The translations under genes and the position numbers were made by a program. The notes beneath the pieces were generated by a model. It ran no database searches. It was not told where the DNA came from and saw only the letters and a program-made list of their open reading frames with translations. Source: Candidatus Jordarchaeales archaeon (GTDB lineage: Archaea > Asgardarchaeota > Jordiarchaeia > Jordiarchaeales > Freyrarchaeaceae). From it: 11,754 nucleotides of DNA. Every line of letters begins with the position of its first letter. The first letter of the stretch is position 1. Where the stretch lies: contig JAWCFL010000048.1 in assembly GCA_038858525.1 (NCBI GenBank), forward strand, positions 1 to 11,754, in the 5' to 3' direction. This document shows, piece after piece, positions 2,253 to 11,754 of this stretch.

Positions 2253-3140
2253 TTAACTACGCTTTTCTTGGAGATTTTCTTTTAGAAATTCGGTTTCTAT
2301 CTTTGTGGTTTCGCTGAATACTGGGTCGAAATACACGTCGAAGTGTCCTACGTCGAAGCCTATTACCTTCACGTTTCTTATTTTGCTAGCCGTCTTCCTG
2401 ACTGCTCTCGGCGGGATCAGCGTGTCCTTCTCAGCGTAGACTATCAGGACTGGGCACTTTATTCTGGGCGCATATCTTACTGGCCTATAGAAAGGTATTG
2501 AGAGGAGTATTCTTGCAGGGCACTCGTTTTTCCATGATGAGCCCTCGGGTATGAGGGAAAGGTACCCATCTTTCGAGCCTGGGGTGTTCATGACGGCGAA
2601 CCTGTCCGGGTCTGCGACTACTGGAACGTGGTGCACTCTGCCGAAGAGGGACGCTAAAGTGTCAGCTGCGCCGTGAAATGCTGCTTTTATGATGAACCTT
2701 AGGCCGAGGAGGGAAGCCGTTGCAAGCCCGTCCACGAAGGGGACTTGTGCCACGACGGCTGAGACATTTTGGTCTTGGGCTGCAGTGACAAGGACGTGCC
2801 CCCCACTGAAGGAGGTTCCCCAGAGTGCAATTCTCTCACCGTCAACTTCCTCTAGGCTGCGCACGTGTTTAAGCGCGTTTCTCCAGTCCTCCAGTTGCTT
2901 TTTAACGCTTACAAGGTTCCTCGGCCTTCCTTCACTATCCCCGAAGTGCCTGTAGTCGAACAGGAAGACCGCCATCCCCTCCCTGCAAAACCTCTCAGCG
3001 AAGGCTGTGAGTTGAAAACTTCTCTCAGCCGCGAACCCATGAGCCATAACCACGACAGGTGGCTTCTTCACTTCGGGAAGGTAAAGCCACCCGGCACACT
3101 TCAACCCTCCACTAACAAAATCCGACTCAACCCTCCTCAA
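2253..3140 (-). CDS. Alpha/beta-fold serine hydrolase (esterase/peptidase/lactonase-like)
   Basis: Oxyanion HG motif (MAHGF), FDYRHFGDSEG, nucleophile elbow WGTSFSGG, acid residue in EKDTLIP and His in VGHFDVY. Start moved from 3221 to TTG 3140 (MRRVESDFVSGG): GGAGGG SD lies 8 nt upstream and a BRE/TATA lies inside the longer ORF-track N-terminus. Confidence 0.9.
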   Translation of the reverse strand: MRRVESDFVSGGLKCAGWLYLPEVKKPPVVVMAHGFAAERSFQLTAFAERFCREGMAVFLFDYRHFGDSEGRPRNLVSVKKQLEDWRNALKHVRSLEEVDGERIALWGTSFSGGHVLVTAAQDQNVSAVVAQVPFVDGLATASLLGLRFIIKAAFHGAADTLASLFGRVHHVPVVADPDRFAVMNTPGSKDGYLSLIPEGSSWKNECPARILLSIPFYRPVRYAPRIKCPVLIVYAEKDTLIPPRAVRKTASKIRNVKVIGFDVGHFDVYFDPVFSETTKIETEFLKENLQEKRS

Positions 3141-3178
3141 CCCAGAAACCCTCCACAAACCAAAACTCGGAAGACCTG

Positions 3179-3194
3179 ATTTAAATCTTTCTTT
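3179..3194 (-). promoter_or_regulatory. BRE + TATA box for the hydrolase gene
   Basis: Minus strand reads AAAGAAAG-ATTTAAAT, about 40 nt before TTG 3140, leaving room for a short leader that carries the SD. Confidence 0.55.
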
Positions 3195-3421
3195 GATCTC
3201 AAATGGGAAATTCTTCACCATTTTTTATGCATCAGAAACTAAATTTTCGTGGAGCGCCTTACTATTAAGTGCTCTCAACTATTTATCGAGCTTTTATTGT
3301 GGTGAAATTTACGGGTTTAAACCAGTCAGAGCATGTATTCCTAACGTGGTTAGTGCGGATCGCTTCATTTTTGTAGAAACATTTATGTCGTACTTTATGG
3401 TTGTTACAATTAGGTGATAAC

Positions 3422-3655
3422 TTGGCGACAATAACGATTAGGGTCAGCGAGGACATTAAAAGGAAGATGCGTGAATTCAAGAATGTTAACTGGTCGGAGT
3501 ATCTGAGGGAAGCTATAGTCAGGAAGATTAGGGAGGAAGAGATGAAGTCCGCCTGTGCCGTCATGGATGAGATAGCTGCGAAGACCCGTGAAGGCTGGAG
3601 TGGAGTAGACGAGATAAGGAAGTGGAGAGATTCAAGGTATGGGCGAGAAGAGTAA
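3422..3655 (+). CDS. vapB: VapB-type ribbon-helix-helix antitoxin
   Basis: ATITIRVSEDIKRKM beta-strand/helix N-terminus and NWSEYLREAI, typical of archaeal RHH antitoxins; overlaps the PIN gene by 17 nt. GGTGA SD (3413-3417) favours TTG 3422 over 3401. Confidence 0.85.
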   Translation: MATITIRVSEDIKRKMREFKNVNWSEYLREAIVRKIREEEMKSACAVMDEIAAKTREGWSGVDEIRKWRDSRYGREE

Positions 3656-4094
3656 GCTCGTAATCGATGCGTCTGTGGTTGTAAAATGGTTTGTACGTGA
3701 GGACGATAGGGCGCCCGCCTTAAATTTAAGGGAGCTACATGTTTCAGGCAGGGTTGAGCTCTTAGCTCCAGACTTGCTGGTTTACGAGGTTGCAAACGCG
3801 CTGAGGTTTAACCCACACTTGGATGCGGGTGACGTTGAGCGTGCTGTGGAAAGTCTCTTTAAACTTCACATCAGACTGTGTCCCCCATCGGTGGCGCTGG
3901 TGGCTGATGCCGCCAGAAAGGCTAAAAGGTACGGAATAACGGTTTACGACGCGGCGTATATGAGTCTGGCTGAGGATGAGGCGTGCAACATGGTGACGGC
4001 TGACGGGAAGCTCTATGGCAAAGTTAAGGGATCTGGTGTAGTTCTCCTTCTTCCATCAGATGAACTTAATGATTGGCTTAAATGGAAAAGTTGA
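3639..4094 (+). CDS. vapC: VapC PIN-domain ribonuclease toxin
   Basis: PIN acidic quartet present: VIDASVV, YEVANAL, TVYDAAY, VTADGKL; 151 aa, directly downstream of an RHH gene. Confidence 0.93.
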   Translation: MGEKSKLVIDASVVVKWFVREDDRAPALNLRELHVSGRVELLAPDLLVYEVANALRFNPHLDAGDVERAVESLFKLHIRLCPPSVALVADAARKAKRYGITVYDAAYMSLAEDEACNMVTADGKLYGKVKGSGVVLLLPSDELNDWLKWKS

Positions 4095-4196: not shown

Positions 4197-4862
4197 TTGC
4201 CTATCAGGGCTCTAGTGTTCGACGTTGAGGGCACACTGTTCAAGTCTAAGAGTTTGACTGACGCATACCGGAACCAGGTTTTGAAGCTTGTATCCGAGAA
4301 GAGTGGACTAAATGGTGAAGCTCTCCTTAAAGAGGTGAGGCGGGTTATAAGCGAGCTTAGGAGAGAAGGCTATGATCAGCGCCCTCCATCTACGTTGATA
4401 GCTGAGAGGCTTGGTGTGACGAGGGAAGAGTTTTACAGAGCCATAGATGAGGTGAACCCTGGAGATCATGTTAAACCCGACCCGGAACTGGTGTCCGCCC
4501 TGAAAGAAATGAAAAGGACGTTTAAGCTCGCTGTGCTGACAAACCTTAGCCGTAAAGGACTAACAGGAGTGCTTAGGGCGCTGGGACTGAGCGAAGATGT
4601 CTTTGACGTTATGCTGACAGCTGATGACCTCGAAGCTCTGAAGCCTCATATTTCAGCATTCAAAAGAGTTCTTGAAGCATTGAAAGTTAACCCAGAAGAG
4701 GTAGTTATGGTGGGCGACATAGTGGCGTCAGACCTAGCTCCAGCGAAGATTCTCGGAATGAAAACTGTCCTTGTAAGTGACGAGCCAGCCAACTCCCCCC
4801 ACGTGGACCTCACGGTAAAACATGTAGCCGAGCTAAAAAACAAAATAAGCCTCCTCCAGTAG
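4197..4862 (+). CDS. HAD-superfamily hydrolase/phosphatase with DxE motif I
   Basis: Motif I FDVEGTL, motif II LTN, motif III KP, motif IV GDIVASD; TTG start with GGTGGGGG SD 6 nt upstream. Confidence 0.92.
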   Translation: MPIRALVFDVEGTLFKSKSLTDAYRNQVLKLVSEKSGLNGEALLKEVRRVISELRREGYDQRPPSTLIAERLGVTREEFYRAIDEVNPGDHVKPDPELVSALKEMKRTFKLAVLTNLSRKGLTGVLRALGLSEDVFDVMLTADDLEALKPHISAFKRVLEALKVNPEEVVMVGDIVASDLAPAKILGMKTVLVSDEPANSPHVDLTVKHVAELKNKISLLQ

Positions 4863-5041: not shown

Positions 5042-5692
5042 TCACTTCATTTTTCTGATTATTTCGTAGACAGTTGCCCCATCCCTGATCACTTTTTCCG
5101 GTAATTGGTGTGGCTCTCCGATCATTAATGCCGTAACGTATATTTTCGCCATCCTCTCGAGGACCTTCGCTAGTTCAAGGACGTGGGCGAGACTTTTCCC
5201 GCAGCATAATACGCCGTGGTTAGCCAGCATGACTGCTGCCCTGTTGCCTAGCGCTTTAACTGCGTTCTCGGCGAGCTCCTCACTCCCTGTGAGCCCGTAC
5301 TCCGCAACCTCTATAGTTCCTCCATACTTGAACATGAATTCGTCCGTGAGCGGAGGAAGTGGCTTCCTTAAAACAGCTAGGACTGACGCGTAGAGCGAGT
5401 GAGTGTGTATTATCGCTCTCACGTCTTCCCTTGCATTGTAGACCTTGAGGTGCATGGGTTTCTCGCTTGACGGCTGCCTTTTGCCCTCCAACACGTTCCC
5501 GTTCAAGTCTAGTAAGACAAGGTCCTCGAGAGCCATCTCCATGTAACTCATAGAAGTAGGAGTTATTAGGACCCTGTCGTCGCCAACCTTCGCGCTCACG
5601 TTACCCTCTGTCCCCTCCACTAGTCCACTCTGAAGCATTTCCCTAGCAGTCCTAATAATCTCTAAACCAACTCTTCTAGTTTCTTCATCCAA
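5042..5692 (-). CDS. Class II aldolase/adducin family protein (FucA/AraD/MtnB-like metal-dependent aldolase, epimerase, dehydratase or decarboxylase)
   Basis: GTEGNVS phosphate-binding motif, ITPT, PSSEKPMH, metal ligands HTH and NHG; TTG start 4 nt after the kinase stop, so co-translated. Confidence 0.93.
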   Translation of the reverse strand: MDEETRRVGLEIIRTAREMLQSGLVEGTEGNVSAKVGDDRVLITPTSMSYMEMALEDLVLLDLNGNVLEGKRQPSSEKPMHLKVYNAREDVRAIIHTHSLYASVLAVLRKPLPPLTDEFMFKYGGTIEVAEYGLTGSEELAENAVKALGNRAAVMLANHGVLCCGKSLAHVLELAKVLERMAKIYVTALMIGEPHQLPEKVIRDGATVYEIIRKMK

Positions 5693-5696
5693 AGGA

Positions 5697-7214
5697 TTAA
5701 ACCCCCAAGCCAGCCACCTTATCGTAAAACTGCCTCCACCTGGAATATACCGCCTCGTACTCTTTATGTTTTTCCGGTGATGGCGACACGCTTTCTCCCT
5801 CCCTCACCATCCCCCTTATGGCGTCCTCAAAACTACTGTATAACCCAACTCCTTTAGCGATACATATAGCACACCCGAGAGAACTCCCCTGCTTTTCAAG
5901 TGGGCTACGCACAGGCAGCCCTGTCACGTCAGAAATCAGCCTCAGAAAGAAGCTGCTCCTAGCAAGCCCACCGGTCACCTTTAACTCCCTTATCTCGACG
6001 CCTGAAACCTCCCGGAGCTGCTCGCAGTTCGCCCTGACCGCGAATGCTACATTTTCAAGTAAAGCTCTGAAGAGCTCGCCCTTCGTGGTTGGCTTGTCAA
6101 CCATGATCAGAGGTGGGAAAGCCAGTGTTGACAGGAAAATCCTGATACCCTCCCTGTAATCCATTATTTGGGGCCCCATGGACGCGAGTATGCCTCCCGC
6201 CCCCAGGGGGGCTTCCTCAGCCATCCTGAAAAGCTCATCATAAGGGTTCAGCCCCCTCTTCTCAGCGTCCTCCGCTTCACCTTTCGCGACTCCATCCTTA
6301 AACCACTCGACAAGCCTACCGGTGATTCCAGCGTTGCTTTCAAGTACCCACCTGCCCGGCAGCACATGGCAACTCGTCCAGATCCTCCTATCGGGATCAA
6401 CAACGGGCTTAGAAAGCACCATCTGGATGGGAGTAGTCGTGCCAGCAACAGCGCAAGCGTCCCCCTCACTCACCCCCCTAGCTGCTAGGACAGCGCACTG
6501 CGTGTCTCCTCCACAAGCAACAACAGTGGTTCCTTCAGGTATGCCCGTTTCGTTGCATGCTTCCCTCGTCACTTCGCCGACAGCGGTTCCGGCTTCAACT
6601 ACCCTAGGCAACTGGTCGACGGTGACTCCCAGCTCCTCAAGCATCCTCCCTGACCATTCAAGCCTTGAAACGTCAAACATTATGGTTTCGGAGGCATTCG
6701 AGTAGTCCGTTGCGTATTCCCCGCAGAACTTGAAGGTGACCCAGTCGCACAGGTTGAGGAACCTGCCAAACTTTGCATAGACGTCAGGCTTCTCCCTCTT
6801 AAACCACAGGATCCTGGATGGCATAAAGATCAAAGGCGGCCAGTGCCCCGTTATCCTGTGAAAATCCCGCCCAAGCCTTTCCATTAAAACATGCTGAACG
6901 AAGACTCCTCTCGCATCCAAGTTTGGTCCAGCATATAGGGGCCGTCCCTCATCATCCGTGAATACCGCAGCATACCTTTGGCTCGTAACACCCACACCAA
7001 TAACCCTATCAGCCACCCCACTATCCCTAACCATGCGCGCCACGTTTTTCCATAGCCACTCAGCGTCGAGCTCAAACCCAACACCAGCCAACCCATCGGA
7101 AGCAGAATACCTCATCCTGAAAGATGAAAAATGGACAAATTTGCCCGCCTCGTCCACCGCCACAAATCTAGCTGACCCGGTGCCGATATCCAAGACAGCC
7201 AGCAAATCCCCCAA
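5697..7214 (-). CDS. FGGY-family carbohydrate kinase, YoaC/LsrK-like subgroup
   Basis: LDIGTGS, TSQR, PNLDARG, GGDTQ, GTTTPI, ESNAGITG, TGG. Start moved from 7301 to TTG 7214 (MGDLLAVLDIGTG) because the DxGT motif normally lies near the N-terminus and GGAGAGTGA precedes this codon. Confidence 0.93.
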   Translation of the reverse strand: MGDLLAVLDIGTGSARFVAVDEAGKFVHFSSFRMRYSASDGLAGVGFELDAEWLWKNVARMVRDSGVADRVIGVGVTSQRYAAVFTDDEGRPLYAGPNLDARGVFVQHVLMERLGRDFHRITGHWPPLIFMPSRILWFKREKPDVYAKFGRFLNLCDWVTFKFCGEYATDYSNASETIMFDVSRLEWSGRMLEELGVTVDQLPRVVEAGTAVGEVTREACNETGIPEGTTVVACGGDTQCAVLAARGVSEGDACAVAGTTTPIQMVLSKPVVDPDRRIWTSCHVLPGRWVLESNAGITGRLVEWFKDGVAKGEAEDAEKRGLNPYDELFRMAEEAPLGAGGILASMGPQIMDYREGIRIFLSTLAFPPLIMVDKPTTKGELFRALLENVAFAVRANCEQLREVSGVEIRELKVTGGLARSSFFLRLISDVTGLPVRSPLEKQGSSLGCAICIAKGVGLYSSFEDAIRGMVREGESVSPSPEKHKEYEAVYSRWRQFYDKVAGLGV

Positions 7215-7475
7215 CCGCTCACTCTCCCACAATAAGGAAGCCGGGCCGTAAGCTAAAAACGTTTTCAGAAAAACCAAATAATTCGAGAAGCCTTTTTCCA
7301 CTGCCAGCTCTTTTTGAAAGAAAGCTTCACGGTGAAGCAGTTCGAAGCTCGCACCCCCTCCTTAACAGGGCAAAAGGGGACTTTTCGTCTTCAGGTAGGT
7401 ACTTATGGAAAAGTATGAAGAAGTAACTTATCGTTGCTCCCCCCGGCCGCCGTACCCATAAATCCGTTAGGAAAG

Positions 7476-7509
7476 TTCACCGATTTAGTGAAAAGGTAAA
7501 TAAATTTCG
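7476..7509 (-). promoter_or_regulatory. Candidate BRE/TATA followed by a TTCAC-N7-GTGAA palindrome
   Basis: Minus strand CGAAATTTATTTA (7497-7509), then TTCAC-cgattta-GTGAA (7476-7492) between the box and the expected start site. Confidence 0.35.
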
Positions 7510-7785
7510 AGGCAATAGGAGAGAGAGAAATAAACCGGTAACAAACGGTAAAAATAGATTGTTGCATCAAAGCCGCTGGAAGCTCCGCTAATAGCCGGAG
7601 TGGAGCACGTTGGAAACTAAACGAAGCTGCCCTCATGCCGGTGCCGCCTCCAAGCTTCCCTTTAACTCATCCTTTAGAAAAGGCAGTTTTGTGATGGGAT
7701 AGTTGCCTGGTCGCTTGTAGGCGGCGCATGGGTATGTTTTTCAGTCAGAGTCTGATGGAAAAGTTGCCGAAAACATTCCTTCCAG

Positions 7786-8799
7786 TTACTTTCCTTCCTG
7801 CTTTAGGACTTCTGGGTTGAGCACGTTTTTGGGTTTTCCTCCTCTCAGTATTTCTCTAATGTCTTCTGCAACCATTATGCTTTGCCTTCGTATCGTGTCA
7901 TGTGTGTTTCCACCTATGTGGGGGGTTAGCACCACGTTATCAAGAGTTAGAAACCTGTTGTCCGACTGAGCCGGGTCATGCTGGACGACGTCCAAAGCTG
8001 CGCCAGCTATCCGCCCTTCCTTCAGCGCCTTGAAAAGGGCGTCCTCATCCACTATGCCCCCTCTGGCGAGGTTAACGAAGAAGGCGGTCGGCTTCATTGC
8101 TGCGAAGTGCTCCTCCCTTATCATCCCAGCCGTCTCCTGCGTTAACCTGCAGTGAACAGTGACAATGTCTGATTCCTGGAAAAGTTCCTTAAGCCCGACG
8201 GTGCGCCCGTCGACAGCCCTAAGCCTTTCAGGGTCAACATAGGGGTCATAGACGATTATTTCCACGTCGAACGCCCTAAGCCTCTTAGCCACCTCGAATC
8301 CTATGGCTCCAAGCCCCACTATCCCAACCTTCTTACCACTTAGCTCGAATCCGAGCGTGGCGTTGTAAACCTCTATGAAGTCCCTTGGGCCTGTATACTT
8401 CACCCGTCCAGACCTAAGCAGCCTGTCAGCCCTTACAATCCTCCTCATGGCGGCCAGCATTAACGCCACAGTGAGCTCAGCCACCGCTATAGTGTTCCTT
8501 CTGGGGGCGTAAACCACAGGAACCTTCTTAGCTGTCGCCGCCCTTAAATCGACGTTGTAAGGGTCATCCCTACACGAAGCTATGACTTTCAAATCGCACT
8601 TCTCGATCGTGTCACGGGTGACAAAGTCCGACTCGACAACAAGCACGTCTGCGCCAACCTCGTTGACGAGCGAGGCAAGCTCTCCCCCATCCAAATAAAT
8701 TTTCCCAGTATCCCTCCAGCTCCTATACTCGACATCCATAAGCTCCCTCAAAATACTCAACCCATCCTCATGAAAGGCAGCAGTAACCAGACACCGCAT
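7786..8799 (-). CDS. D-isomer-specific 2-hydroxyacid dehydrogenase (YoaD / Mtb SerA2-like), NAD-dependent
   Basis: Rossmann GIVGLGAIG then YDPY (Asp favours NAD), RNTIAVAE, NLARGG, TPHIGG. Start moved from 9030 to ATG 8799 (MRCLVTAA), with GGGGTGA SD 4 nt upstream. Confidence 0.95.
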   Translation of the reverse strand: MRCLVTAAFHEDGLSILRELMDVEYRSWRDTGKIYLDGGELASLVNEVGADVLVVESDFVTRDTIEKCDLKVIASCRDDPYNVDLRAATAKKVPVVYAPRRNTIAVAELTVALMLAAMRRIVRADRLLRSGRVKYTGPRDFIEVYNATLGFELSGKKVGIVGLGAIGFEVAKRLRAFDVEIIVYDPYVDPERLRAVDGRTVGLKELFQESDIVTVHCRLTQETAGMIREEHFAAMKPTAFFVNLARGGIVDEDALFKALKEGRIAGAALDVVQHDPAQSDNRFLTLDNVVLTPHIGGNTHDTIRRQSIMVAEDIREILRGGKPKNVLNPEVLKQEGK

Positions 8800-9147
8800 A
8801 AAATCACCCCAACAAAAACAGGAAAACAACACTAAAAAACTCTCCTCCTTAAAAACAGCGACACACGCAACCAGAAACGTGAACAACAAAAAACTCGAAA
8901 TCAAACAAACCAAAAAACAAAACAGGCAATCGGAGCCCAAAACTAGCCTTCGAAACAACAACCCTAAACCCCACGATAAAACACAACCCCCTCCACAATA
9001 GTCACAAAGTAAACTACAAAGGTCTCCCAAACAAAACTAAAAAGCAAAAGGACAACTCACAAAGACAAACGAAACCCGAATTATTTATTATCCGCCATCG
9101 ACAAACTACTTCTCAAGAGCAACTAAGAGAAAAAAGAGGGAACCCTC

Positions 9148-10230
9148 TTGAGCATCAAAGAAGAGTTCCTCCTCCTGCTGGAAAAAGACAAAGAATTCAG
9201 GTATGCAGTCCTAGGACTCCTAGGACTAGACGAGATAATAAAACGAATGGACCAGTACCATCAGACCCAGATAAAAATACTCGAAAGACTAGAAAACCTT
9301 GAACGAATACAGACCAAGCTCGCCGAAGAACACGTCTCCTTCAGGGAAGCCCTAGCCAAACTGAGCGAAGGGCAGGCGAGGTTGGAGGCTGCCATGGCTA
9401 GGCTTAGCGAGAGCCAGGCTAGGCTGGAGGAACGGCAGGCTAGGCTGGAGGAAAGGCAGATTAAGTTGGAGGAGCGGCAGGCTAGGCTGGAGGAACGGCA
9501 GATTAAGTTGGAGGAGCGGCAGGCTAGGCTGGAGGAAAGGCAGATTAAGTTGGAGGAGCGGCAGGCTAGGCTGGAGGAGGCTCAGGCGAGGTTGGAGGCT
9601 GCCATGGCTAGGCTGAGCGAGAGCCAGGCTAGGCTGGAGGAGCGGCAGGCTAGGCTGGAGGAGGCTCAGGCGAGGTTGGAGGCTGCCATGGCTAGGCTTA
9701 GCGAGAGCCAGGCTAGGCTGGAGGAGCGGCAGGCTAGGCTGGAGGAAGAGCAGCTGCGTCTTAGGGAAGACTTTAACAAAATGCTTGCTCGTATTGAGAG
9801 GCTGGAGGAAATTCAGCTTCGTATGGATGCACGCTTGACTAGAATGGAGGCTACTCTCGATAAGCTTACGTTAGACATTGAGGAGGAGGCTAGGTCTGTT
9901 GTAAGGTGGAGGTTACGCGAGATGGGTTATGAGGTTGATGTAGGCCCCCTTATGCTTCCTGACGGTGAAATAAATATTTATGGTGTTTCTGATGGTGTTT
10001 GCGTTATCGGTGAGGTGTCTGTTAGAGCTGGGGTCAAGTTGGTGGATGAAGTCGTCAGAAAGGCCGCGTTCTTGGAAAGGAAATATCCTGAAAAAGTTAG
10101 GCCGAAAAAGATACTTTTGATTTATACCTCTTGGATCCCCTTCGAAGCAATTGAGGAGGCTAAAGAAAAAGGGGTGTGGGTGCTTAAAGCTACAGGGGAC
10201 ATAACACCGCCGCCAAAGCTAACCAGCTGA
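9148..10230 (+). CDS. Archaeal coiled-coil heptad-repeat protein with C-terminal PD-(D/E)xK-like domain
   Basis: N-terminus EEFLLLLEKDKEFRYAVLGLLGL, long L-x6 heptad array, C-terminal EINIYG…IGEVSVR…LLIYTSW region resembling archaeal restriction-endonuclease-fold tails; TTG start with GAGGG SD. Confidence 0.85.
   Translation: MSIKEEFLLLLEKDKEFRYAVLGLLGLDEIIKRMDQYHQTQIKILERLENLERIQTKLAEEHVSFREALAKLSEGQARLEAAMARLSESQARLEERQARLEERQIKLEERQARLEERQIKLEERQARLEERQIKLEERQARLEEAQARLEAAMARLSESQARLEERQARLEEAQARLEAAMARLSESQARLEERQARLEEEQLRLREDFNKMLARIERLEEIQLRMDARLTRMEATLDKLTLDIEEEARSVVRWRLREMGYEVDVGPLMLPDGEINIYGVSDGVCVIGEVSVRAGVKLVDEVVRKAAFLERKYPEKVRPKKILLIYTSWIPFEAIEEAKEKGVWVLKATGDITPPPKLTS
9361..9759 (+). 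repeat. 19 in-frame tandem 21-nt repeats with nested 42-nt and 84-nt higher-order units
   Basis: Consensus YTGGAGGARCGGCAGGCTAGG (LEERQAR). The 42-nt unit LEERQAR-LEERQIK occurs 3 times (9424-9549). The 84-nt unit occurs twice (9571-9654 and 9655-9738), differing at one synonymous base (CTG/CTT). Confidence 0.97.
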
Positions 10231-10369
10231 TGTTGTTCTTAAGCCGCCGCGCTCCAAGCTATTCCCCCCTCAGCTTTTCATCGTCCATTTATGCTGCGTT
10301 AAATTTTTCTTGGAAAAGGGAGGAAATCTCTTTTAGGTTGCTTTTTTAACTTTTGCTTGGTGTTTCGGG

Positions 10370-11754
10370 TTGCGAGGGTATGCTGGGAGAATTTTGGAAG
10401 TCGACCTTGATAATGGTGGAGTTAGCGAAGTTAGGCTTGATGATTCAGTTCTGAGAGACTACATTGGGGGCAGAGGGCTTGCAGTTAAGATTCTATGGGA
10501 TAAGTTGGGGTCAAGGTGGGAGGAGATCGACCCCCTCGGCCCTGAAAACATCCTGACAATCCTTACGGGTCCCCTCACGGGATACTTTCCGGGCGCGAAG
10601 ATCTGCGTCTCGGGAAAGTCTCCACTAAGCAACGGGATAATAGGCTCGACAGTTTCCGGTGAAGCCGGAGTAGAGCTCAAATGCGCGGGATACGACGGAA
10701 TAATAATTACCGGGGTAGCTGAGAAGCCGTCCTACTTGTTCGTGTGCGACGACCACGTGGAAATCAGGGATGCCGGGCACGTCTGGGGTATGGAGGGGAC
10801 GGAAGCACTCAGAACACTGGTGGAAGAGGGGAGGCGCCTGGTAAGTGGGGTCCACCCCAGGCTTGGGAAGCTTAAGGAGCCCGCAGTCCTCTATGTTGGT
10901 CCAGCAGGTGAGAGGCGGGTTAGGTTTGCCTGCGTCATGGAGAAGAGGAGCCACGCTGCAGGCTATGGTGGTTATGGCGCCGTTATGGGGTCAAAGAACC
11001 TTAAAGCCATAGTGGTGAAGGGCACTGGGCCGCTCCCGGAGCCGGCGGACATGAAGAAAGTGGTCGAGCTCATGGAGTCAATATGCGGAGACTGCTACCA
11101 GAACGCTGGGTTCAGGAGGTATGGGACGGCCAGCGGAGGATACAATGTTGGAGCATTGATGAGCGCTGAGCCCATAAGAAACTGGCAGGAAGAATGGCAC
11201 GACGACAAAGGATACTCGGTCGAGGAGTTCTCAAAGTACTGGGTTAAGTCGTACTGGGGTGATTTCAACTGCCCGACCACCTGCATGAAGATAGCGGTCA
11301 TCAGGGATGGCGAGTTCAAGGGGGCAATATGCGACCCCCCAGACTACGAGCATCAAGCTTACAACGGAACAAACCTCGGAATATTTTCCCCAAGAGACAA
11401 CATATACCTCTCATGCCTCATGAACGAGCTCGGACTCTGCGCCATACAGGCAGGCAACGTGCTCGGCTTCGCAGCCGAACTATACGAGAAAGGAATAATC
11501 GGAAAGGACGACCTAGGCTTCGAGCTAAGGTGGGGCGACACGAAGGCCTTCGCTAAGCTAGCCAGAATGACCGCCTACAGGGAAGGTCTAGGAGACGTGC
11601 TGGCGGAGGGAACATATAGAGCGGCCTTAAAAATAAGCCAACTCAAAAAACTGAAGCCGGAGGAAGTTCTGAATTACGCCGTCCAAGTGAAGGGGGTCGC
11701 AGTCGGAGCCCACGGAGTGAGAAGCGGAGCAGACTTCCTAGTGGAGGAAATATC
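10370..11754 (+). CDS. aor: Tungstopterin aldehyde:ferredoxin oxidoreductase family protein, 3'-truncated (absent from the ORF track because no stop lies in the window)
   Basis: Hand translation: MRGYAGRILEVDL, YIGGRGLA, KSPLSNG, LKCAGYDGIIITG, VGPAGE, GAVMGSKNLKAIVV, DFNCPTTC, PDYE, NELGLC, GDVLAEG. TTG 10370 is the first start after the in-frame TAG at 10334-10336; GGTG lies 7 nt upstream. Confidence 0.95.
   Translation, partial: MRGYAGRILEVDLDNGGVSEVRLDDSVLRDYIGGRGLAVKILWDKLGSRWEEIDPLGPENILTILTGPLTGYFPGAKICVSGKSPLSNGIIGSTVSGEAGVELKCAGYDGIIITGVAEKPSYLFVCDDHVEIRDAGHVWGMEGTEALRTLVEEGRRLVSGVHPRLGKLKEPAVLYVGPAGERRVRFACVMEKRSHAAGYGGYGAVMGSKNLKAIVVKGTGPLPEPADMKKVVELMESICGDCYQNAGFRRYGTASGGYNVGALMSAEPIRNWQEEWHDDKGYSVEEFSKYWVKSYWGDFNCPTTCMKIAVIRDGEFKGAICDPPDYEHQAYNGTNLGIFSPRDNIYLSCLMNELGLCAIQAGNVLGFAAELYEKGIIGKDDLGFELRWGDTKAFAKLARMTAYREGLGDVLAEGTYRAALKISQLKKLKPEEVLNYAVQVKGVAVGAHGVRSGADFLVEEI

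Follow-up and report, generated by a model that had tools for sequence, protein, structure and literature searches.

A conserved dehydrogenase, kinase and aldolase gene trio in a Jordarchaeales archaeon, a candidate module for the cleavage of polyol-like compounds

The DNA described here, called the window below, is an entire contig of 11,754 nucleotides (11.7 kb; JAWCFL010000048.1) from the assembly GCA_038858525.1 of a Candidatus Jordarchaeales archaeon, a member of the Asgard archaea. The assembly has 2.09 Mb and is 92.7% complete, and near-identical DNA is present in hot-spring metagenomes from several studies. The window carries genes for a dehydrogenase, an FGGY kinase and a class II aldolase. 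This trio is a real, strongly conserved module, and the window holds its archaeal variant without SCP2, a gene that precedes the trio in several sister lineages. An earlier reading of the sequence (the original prediction) had described three co-oriented genes, the last two 4 nt apart, and this layout is confirmed on the minus strand:

7786-8799, minus strand: D-2-hydroxyacid-dehydrogenase-fold gene, ATG at 8799, stop at 7786, 337 amino acids; Pfam 2-Hacid_dh_C
7233-7785: non-coding spacer, dehydrogenase to kinase, 553 nt
5697-7232, minus strand: FGGY kinase, 511 amino acids, start at 7232 as in database protein P0001; Pfam FGGY_N/FGGY_C
5042-5692, minus strand: FucA-type class II (zinc) aldolase, 216 amino acids; Pfam Aldolase_II

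Positions 5693-5696 lie between the stop of the kinase and the start of the aldolase, and the open frame of the kinase extends beyond the chosen start, to 7301 (5697-7301). The open reading frame of the dehydrogenase can likewise be extended upstream, by 77 hydrophobic residues (8800-9030, minus strand). This extension was rejected as coding sequence; the ATG at 8799 is where the family consensus begins, and the gene models of relatives have 333 amino acids. The stretch is G/T-rich and reads as a Cys-, Leu- and Phe-rich 'membrane' segment, which looks like a compositional artefact and not an anchor. The spacer is unusually long within an otherwise tight trio. It gave no Rfam match (the window was scanned at E<=1), and it is neither alignable with nor conserved in the 200-300-nt spacers of the relatives L005, L010 and L013. 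A remnant gene was sought in it by alignment with three relatives and none was found, and in a strain about 92% identical the spacer is partly replaced. Its length, the missing Rfam match and the lack of conservation suggest that the dehydrogenase is probably transcribed apart from the other two genes, and that the kinase-aldolase pair probably has its own promoter. Short contigs from metatranscriptome library X15, 95-99% alike, lie over the dehydrogenase, spacer, kinase, aldolase and a neighboring haloacid dehalogenase (HAD)-type gene. They were not used as evidence, since the presence of contigs in an RNA library is no proof of transcription. A short insert from a metatranscriptome library also maps to the spacer, at 7525-7654.

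None of the three enzymes reaches an equivalog cut-off in NCBIfam. The kinase (141 bits on FGGY_N, 80 bits on FGGY_C) scores 304.9 bits on the LsrK model (NF008187, cut-off 528) and 210 bits on XylB (cut-off 380). The LsrK model is not discriminating, because a glycerol-kinase-like paralogue from the same genome, which groups with glycerol kinase, outscores the window kinase with 323.7 bits. Among PDB structures, LsrK (5ya0) matches best with 241 bits, and the glycerol kinase GlpK is second with 116 bits. A quick tree was made of 91 rows, including E. coli LsrK, XylB, GlpK, FucK, AraB and RhaB and the three other FGGY genes of the genome, which holds four such kinases. All dehydrogenase-linked kinases and LsrK form one clade (Shimodaira-Hasegawa-like approximate likelihood ratio, SH-aLRT, 100), with XylB, GlpK, FucK, AraB, RhaB and the three paralogues outside it. 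On PDB scores and tree position, E. coli LsrK is the nearest characterized relative of the kinase. The resemblance to LsrK was foreseen in the original prediction, and a grouping with xylulo-, fuculo- or rhamnulokinases, which would have spoken against the prediction, is not seen, nor is one with ribulo- or glycerol kinases. LsrK itself has a long branch and sits at the clade's unresolved base, outside both the window's archaeal sub-clade and the dehydrogenase-linked groups. The two proteins share the FGGY fold and related motifs, (T/C)S(Q/M)R, xNxDxR and GGxD(T/V)Q. The motifs quoted in the prediction are present, DIGTGSAR, TSQR, PNLDARG, GGDTQ, GTTTPI and ESNAGITG in the kinase, and CLVTAAF and CRDDPYNVD in the dehydrogenase.

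The dehydrogenase (209 bits on 2-Hacid_dh_C) is the sole full-length 2-Hacid_dh gene in the assembly. It falls below the NCBIfam cut-offs for phosphoglycerate dehydrogenase (260.7 bits, cut-off 454) and glyoxylate reductase (235 bits, cut-off 455), and its best solved relative is 1wwk, at 211 bits. In its tree, the kinase-adjacent dehydrogenases make up one clade (SH-aLRT 99), outside of which fall E. coli SerA, GhrB and PdxB and the paralogues of two carrier genomes. The major groups within the clade mirror those of the kinase tree. Judged from these two trees, kinase and dehydrogenase are dedicated clades evolving together. The dehydrogenase keeps the catalytic Arg and His, and E56, D58, R76, R101 and N102 are invariant in the family. 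E56 and D58 occupy the place of Arg-Ser in phosphoglycerate dehydrogenases (VVESD vs VRS of 1wwk). The clade also has an invariant CR(G/D)DPxNVD loop and an APxRN loop, and the extra Arg76 and Arg101-Asn102 lie in the substrate loops.

The aldolase (186 bits on Aldolase_II) has FucA as its best match in both NCBIfam and PDB (PRK05874, 179.7 bits, cut-off 308; 4c24, 155 bits), and scores 129.9 bits on TIGR01086 (cut-off 400). When the window protein and 11 family members were aligned with E. coli FucA, the zinc ligands His92, His94 and His155, the catalytic Glu73 and the phosphate-site Asn29 and Ser71 were all found to be kept. By this alignment the aldolase retains the zinc and enolate-forming residues of FucA. 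FucA Tyr113 is Asp in the window protein.

The trio recurs widely. One genome per species was searched with the kinase alignment, and in the 80 loci obtained stop-to-stop open reading frames were scored against family models. The dehydrogenase adjoins the kinase in 75 of the 80 loci, and an aldolase is present in 44. In 21 archaeal loci, from Hermod-, Thor-, Odin- and Promethearchaeota and one member of the Thermoplasmata, the order is SCP2-dehydrogenase-kinase-aldolase, and in 19 of these an aldehyde:ferredoxin oxidoreductase (AOR) directly follows the aldolase. The three enzymes occur without SCP2 in 11 loci, including those of Frey-, Jord-, Baldr- and Helarchaeota, and with an added AOR in three bacterial loci. 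In a further nine bacterial loci the kinase, dehydrogenase, (SCP2) and aldolase are parts of a single polypeptide of about 1290 amino acids. Pfam finds FGGY_N/C, 2-Hacid_dh, SCP2 and Aldolase_II within one such frame in each of four fusions examined; the carriers are Mycobacterium attenuatum, Actinomycetota, Anaerolineae and Myxococcales. The remaining pattern, dehydrogenase and kinase only, is seen in 31 bacterial loci, mostly Binatia. When the dehydrogenase was used as query in 301 genomes of a Bacillota-type phylum (around a Bacillota metagenome-assembled genome, apparently a non-Bacillus group with small genomes), the kinase and sometimes the aldolase were again found beside dehydrogenases of the family type.

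The strongest evidence for joint action of the window's three genes comes from the Rosetta-stone fusion. Its catalytic parts are homologous to the three genes, with kinase and dehydrogenase from the same clades; it differs in that the window has separate genes, the gap after the dehydrogenase and no linked SCP2. Fusions and 75/80 adjacency together exclude chance co-localization. The three families are thus functionally coupled across Archaea and Bacteria, as the original prediction of a recurrent cross-domain unit had it. The window belongs to this module, as its kinase and dehydrogenase fall within the module clades and a FucA-like aldolase is adjacent.

The gene context of the module differs among lineages. 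Operons of the Hermod/Loki type have eight genes, for an NfnA-like protein, a small membrane protein, SCP2, dehydrogenase, kinase, aldolase, AOR and an NfnB-like protein. The small protein, located between the NfnA-like gene and SCP2, is of about 115-122 amino acids with three predicted membrane helices, and belongs to no Pfam family (L018:6133-6498 and eight homologues). The 122-amino-acid Hermod gene was considered as an LsrG-like isomerase and rejected; it is this membrane protein. Thorarchaeota have a group-3b-like NiFe hydrogenase ahead of SCP2 and an AEC-type transporter after the AOR. The operon AOR is an AOR sensu stricto, closest to the Pyrococcus AOR proper. Two Bacillota loci have other neighbors: in L054 a CUT2 sugar ATP-binding cassette (ABC) transporter, a major facilitator superfamily (MFS) transporter and an IclR regulator, and in L055 a SorC/LsrR-type regulator, a zinc polyol dehydrogenase and a xylose-isomerase-like barrel. 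SCP2 and the membrane protein of the archaeal, mostly Asgard, operons suggest an amphiphilic substrate, and the Bacillota neighbors suggest a soluble sugar or polyol. Neither the window nor the Jord-, Frey- and Baldrarchaeal loci have an SCP2 gene linked to the trio, and the one good SCP2 gene of the genome stands alone on contig C3, beside a TFIIB gene. The neighborhood of the Binatia-type dehydrogenase-kinase pairs is quite unlike the archaeal one. In L009 (9508-13745) and about 10 similar loci the pair is followed by a beta-phosphoglucomutase (beta-PGM)-type HAD, an ABC-2 exporter, a GldG-like auxiliary protein and a DUF4340 protein. A beta-PGM-type HAD phosphatase follows the kinase in nine of the 31 bacterial pair loci.

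The trio probably splits a three-carbon phosphate off a polyol-like compound. We tentatively read it, with confidence a little short of even, as one catabolic module in which a kinase, an oxidation and a retro-aldol cleavage would yield dihydroxyacetone phosphate (DHAP) and an aldehyde. The LsrK-like kinase would first phosphorylate the terminal CH2OH of a polyol-type end (HOCH2-CHOH-CHOH-CHOH-R). The dehydrogenase, using NAD+, would then oxidize the CHOH adjoining the new phosphoester to give a ketose-1-phosphate-like compound; this position is the one oxidized by phosphoglycerate dehydrogenase in 3-phosphoglycerate. The class II aldolase would cleave this compound into DHAP and an aldehyde R-CHO, and an AOR would turn the aldehyde into an acid. 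The last enzyme is operon-encoded in sister lineages, and in the window's organism it would be one of eight AOR paralogues elsewhere in the genome.

Two features of the module favor this order. Aldolases of the FucA type require a 2-keto-1-phosphate with hydroxyls at positions 3 and 4. No isomerase is found in the fusion, which has exactly three activities, or in the Asgard operons, so the carbonyl that a DHAP-type aldolase needs would be made by the dehydrogenase. Second, the route would yield one NADH and one reduced ferredoxin, which fits the Nfn genes (Hermod/Loki type) or hydrogenase genes (Thorarchaeota) in the same operons. The catalytic residues kept in the dehydrogenase, the family-specific changes in its active site and the FucA residues kept in the aldolase also count in favor of the route. 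As a precedent, FucA and RhaD make and cleave erythrulose-1-phosphate and take many aldehydes (PMC10733421).

Several points weigh against the proposed route. The proposed order of steps is read from gene content only. The usual substrates of D-2-hydroxyacid dehydrogenases are 2-oxo or 2-hydroxy acids, and the enzymes work mostly as reductases. An aldolase is missing from the neighborhood in about 40% of the loci, namely in the 31 bacterial dehydrogenase-kinase pairs and in the close relative L010. The invariant core is therefore dehydrogenase plus kinase, and its function may need no cleavage. The L010 locus (6673-11321), whose kinase is 71% identical, has dehydrogenase, kinase, HAD and alpha/beta-hydrolase genes in synteny with the window and lacks the aldolase; this lineage lost or never had it. 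In the window itself, 553 nt lie between the dehydrogenase and the kinase-aldolase pair. The substrate clues from gene context conflict, which indicates that the family may serve several substrates. Similarly, sub-clades differ in the residue after the QR motif of the kinase: LsrK and the Frey, Bacillota and Binatia forms have Glu, most of the SCP2-linked and fused forms have His, and the window's clade has Tyr, so substrates may differ. The module family probably serves more than one substrate.

An unlikely alternative places the dehydrogenase last. Here the kinase would make a ketose-1-phosphate from a free ketose and the aldolase would release DHAP and a hydroxy-aldehyde. An AOR would convert the latter to a 2-hydroxy acid (glycolate, lactate or glycerate), which the dehydrogenase would oxidize to a 2-oxo acid. 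The operon order dehydrogenase-kinase-aldolase-AOR allows such a route, and the polyol dehydrogenase and sugar isomerase of L055 could supply the ketose. The dehydrogenase would also be given the canonical substrate class of its family, whose glyoxylate reductases are among its best matches, but E56/D58 and the extra arginines argue against an ordinary 2-hydroxy-acid site. Moreover, fusions in aerobes have no AOR, and the dehydrogenase stays by the kinase in the 31 loci that lack both aldolase and AOR. FucK and RhaB, the known 1-kinases, are unrelated to the LsrK-clade kinase, and to oxidize glycolate or lactate with NAD+ is a strongly uphill reaction.

Quite unlikely is a role for the trio in the metabolism of 4,5-dihydroxy-2,3-pentanedione (DPD; autoinducer-2, AI-2) or of a related diketo- or deoxy-pentose. 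The LsrK-like kinase would phosphorylate this compound and, after a carbonyl shift, the dehydrogenase would reduce a keto group to give 5-deoxypentulose-1-phosphate. The aldolase would then produce DHAP and acetaldehyde, to be oxidized by an AOR. The kinase tree (a shared clade with LsrK at SH-aLRT 100) and the PDB scores (241 vs 116 bits) fit such a role, as do the SorC/LsrR-type regulator of L055 and the CUT2 ABC transporter of L054, which recall lsr operons. In B. subtilis, moreover, yoaDCB is an S-box unit, regulated by S-adenosylmethionine (SAM), for a dehydrogenase, a kinase and a transporter (PMC2743287; S-box also PMC12121620), as the original prediction had stated. However, the window kinase reaches 305 of the 528 bits required by the LsrK model, where the glycerol-kinase-like paralogue attains 324. 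LuxS was not found in the 92.7%-complete genome, and the window has no lsrRACDBFG genes, that is, none for LsrG, LsrF, LsrR or LsrACDB; the membrane protein of the Hermod operons is not LsrG-like either. Unlike LsrK, the kinase family of the window almost always travels with a dedicated dehydrogenase (75/80). Rfam detects no SAM riboswitch or other RNA in the window (E<=1) or in 20 bacterial loci (gathering score), which also sets the window trio apart from yoaDCB. Finally, the linkage to Nfn or hydrogenase genes fits an oxidizing and not a reducing dehydrogenase, and SCP2 is left without a role. The link to SAM and DPD proposed in the original prediction thus finds no backing in LuxS, lsr genes or a riboswitch.

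We consider it improbable that the module handles sugar acids. The dehydrogenase would reduce or oxidize a 2-keto-aldonate or aldonate, the kinase would phosphorylate the acid, and the aldolase-fold enzyme would be a decarboxylase or epimerase, like OtnC or SgbE/AraD. The 2-ketogluconate reductases share the dehydrogenase fold, and the aldolase also matches OtnC (120 bits) and epimerase models (155 bits). Its best matches are nevertheless of the FucA type, and Glu73 of FucA is kept where AraD has Asp. In tetronate pathways, too, a dehydrogenase and a kinase work with a decarboxylase of the class II aldolase fold (PMC12994016), but these pathways use DUF1537 kinases and other dehydrogenase families. 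The enzymes of that study are of the SDR and DUF1537 type and not of the window's families. The AOR within the operons also implies an aldehyde product. A small ketose or sugar acid had been suggested originally as the substrate; the presence of SCP2 and the membrane protein in operons of sister lineages speaks against one that is purely small and hydrophilic.

An ordinary fucose, rhamnose or xylulose pathway, or a chance adjacency in which the dehydrogenase is the cell's SerA, is scarcely credible: automatic annotation does give xylulokinase or AI-2 kinase, fuculose-phosphate aldolase and phosphoglycerate dehydrogenase, and the dehydrogenase is the genome's only 2-Hacid_dh gene, but the kinase lies outside the XylB, FucK, RhaB, AraB and GlpK groups and the dehydrogenase outside SerA, GhrB and PdxB, all equivalog cut-offs are missed, there is no isomerase, no SerC of the genome passes its cut-off, and chance is excluded by the fusions and the adjacency.

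The kinase-oxidation-cleavage route has partial parallels in known systems. In the FucK-FucA and RhaB-RhaD pathways, an FGGY kinase acts ahead of a zinc class II aldolase, from which DHAP and an aldehyde are released, and FucA proteins, with their metal ligands and catalytic Glu kept, are the best solved relatives of the window aldolase. The window differs in that its kinase is in neither group, a sugar isomerase is missing, an extra dehydrogenase is obligatory, and Tyr113 is replaced by Asp. The DHAP shunt for disposal of 5-deoxyribose (MtnK or DrdK, an isomerase and a class II aldolase) also ends with DHAP and a small aldehyde. It differs in having another kinase family and an isomerase in place of the dehydrogenase, and no SAM link was found for the window module. 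A precedent for the first two steps is found in Brucella, where erythritol catabolism starts with phosphorylation by EryA, followed by EryB (PMC5468441). As in the proposed route, a polyol is phosphorylated first and the neighboring carbinol is then oxidized. EryB is of another dehydrogenase family, and its product, a tetrulose phosphate, is isomerized to erythrose-4-phosphate with no aldolase cleavage.

The original prediction had also pointed to the Rv0727c-0729 region of M. tuberculosis. A split locus of M. attenuatum (L115:5724-8746) has this layout, with an aldolase and a dehydrogenase beside a divergent FGGY kinase. The comparison stands as regards the layout and the dehydrogenase, which is SerA2-like and within the clade (334 bits on the family model; aldolase 216 bits), and fails for the kinase, which is 24% identical to that of the window and outside the LsrK-like clade. 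That M. attenuatum carries both the fusion and a split pair with an unrelated kinase suggests two parallel systems. Homologue searches brought up no protein named YoaC or YoaD. In the literature, a speculative role in cysteine degradation has been mentioned for YoaC/YoaD (PMC2885750). Our searches found no functional study of YoaC/YoaD or of Rv0727c-0729, nothing on an FGGY/SCP2/aldolase fusion or on LsrK in Asgard archaea, and no paper assigning a function to the module.

If the proposed route is right, the module would be an undescribed way to feed polyol-type compounds into glycolysis. It would work by phosphorylation, oxidation and aldol cleavage, with no need for an isomerase, and would be conserved in lineages ranging from Asgard archaea to mycobacteria. 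Among fermentative archaea, the module would be wired to a tungsten aldehyde oxidoreductase and to electron disposal by Nfn or hydrogenase. It would also provide a function for genes that carry the wrong labels AI-2 kinase, phosphoglycerate dehydrogenase and fuculose-phosphate aldolase across thousands of genomes, including the mycobacterial SerA2/FucA neighborhood and possibly Bacillus yoaDC.

The SCP2-linked forms raise the idea of degradation of polyol-tailed lipids in anoxic sediments. A highly improbable version of this idea is that the module acts on a membrane lipid and shortens its polyol end by cutting DHAP off a terminal tetrol. The best candidate would be the C32-C35 side chain of bacteriohopanetetrol, which would leave a C32 aldehyde and, through AOR, C32 hopanoic acid. 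This acid is a dominant hopanoid acid of sediments. Were this so, the early diagenesis of hopanoids would have Asgard archaea and sediment bacteria among its agents, and the SCP2-less version in the window would be a derivative for a smaller or different polyol.

Outside the trio, the window contains three further genes of interest:

10370-11752, plus strand: WOR5-type tungsten aldehyde:ferredoxin oxidoreductase, cut by the contig end; Pfam AFOR_N/AFOR_C
4197-4862, plus strand: HAD-type phosphatase, convergent with the aldolase; Pfam HAD_2/Hydrolase, best NCBIfam TIGR02253, below cut-off
2253-3221, minus strand: alpha/beta-hydrolase (esterase/lactonase-like); Pfam Hydrolase_4/Abhydrolase_1/AXE1

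An AOR as a sink for the aldehyde, which the original prediction had assigned to the gene nearby, is strongly supported for other archaea by the 19 archaeal loci; the window's own AOR is an unlinked WOR5-type paralogue. It matches P. furiosus WOR5 (6x1o) with 574 bits over 455 amino acids, lies on the strand opposite to the trio with a coiled-coil gene in between, and is the poorest of the eight genomic AORs on the operon-type AOR model, the best being on contig C60. It may act as a sink for the aldehyde, though it is not linked to the trio. The syntenic relative L005 has a polyferredoxin-like gene immediately past the AOR. On contig C40 (12604-15092) of the genome, a second short class II aldolase-fold gene (188 amino acids) is found directly beside another AOR. 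This pair adjoins 3-hydroxyacyl-CoA dehydrogenase and thiolase/DUF35-type genes, a lipid-oxidation context.

The HAD phosphatase and the alpha/beta-hydrolase flank the trio in close relatives only and are lineage-specific neighbors. The former is syntenic in the Jordarchaeales relatives L005, L010 and L013 and differs from the bacterial beta-PGM-type HAD; the latter scores 138 bits on the UilS-type lactonase model of NCBIfam (cut-off 400). Between the two lie a PIN-domain gene (3639-4094) and a small upstream open reading frame (region 3401-4094). The PIN-domain gene is missing at that place in the syntenic L005 and L006, and thus looks like a toxin-antitoxin insertion.

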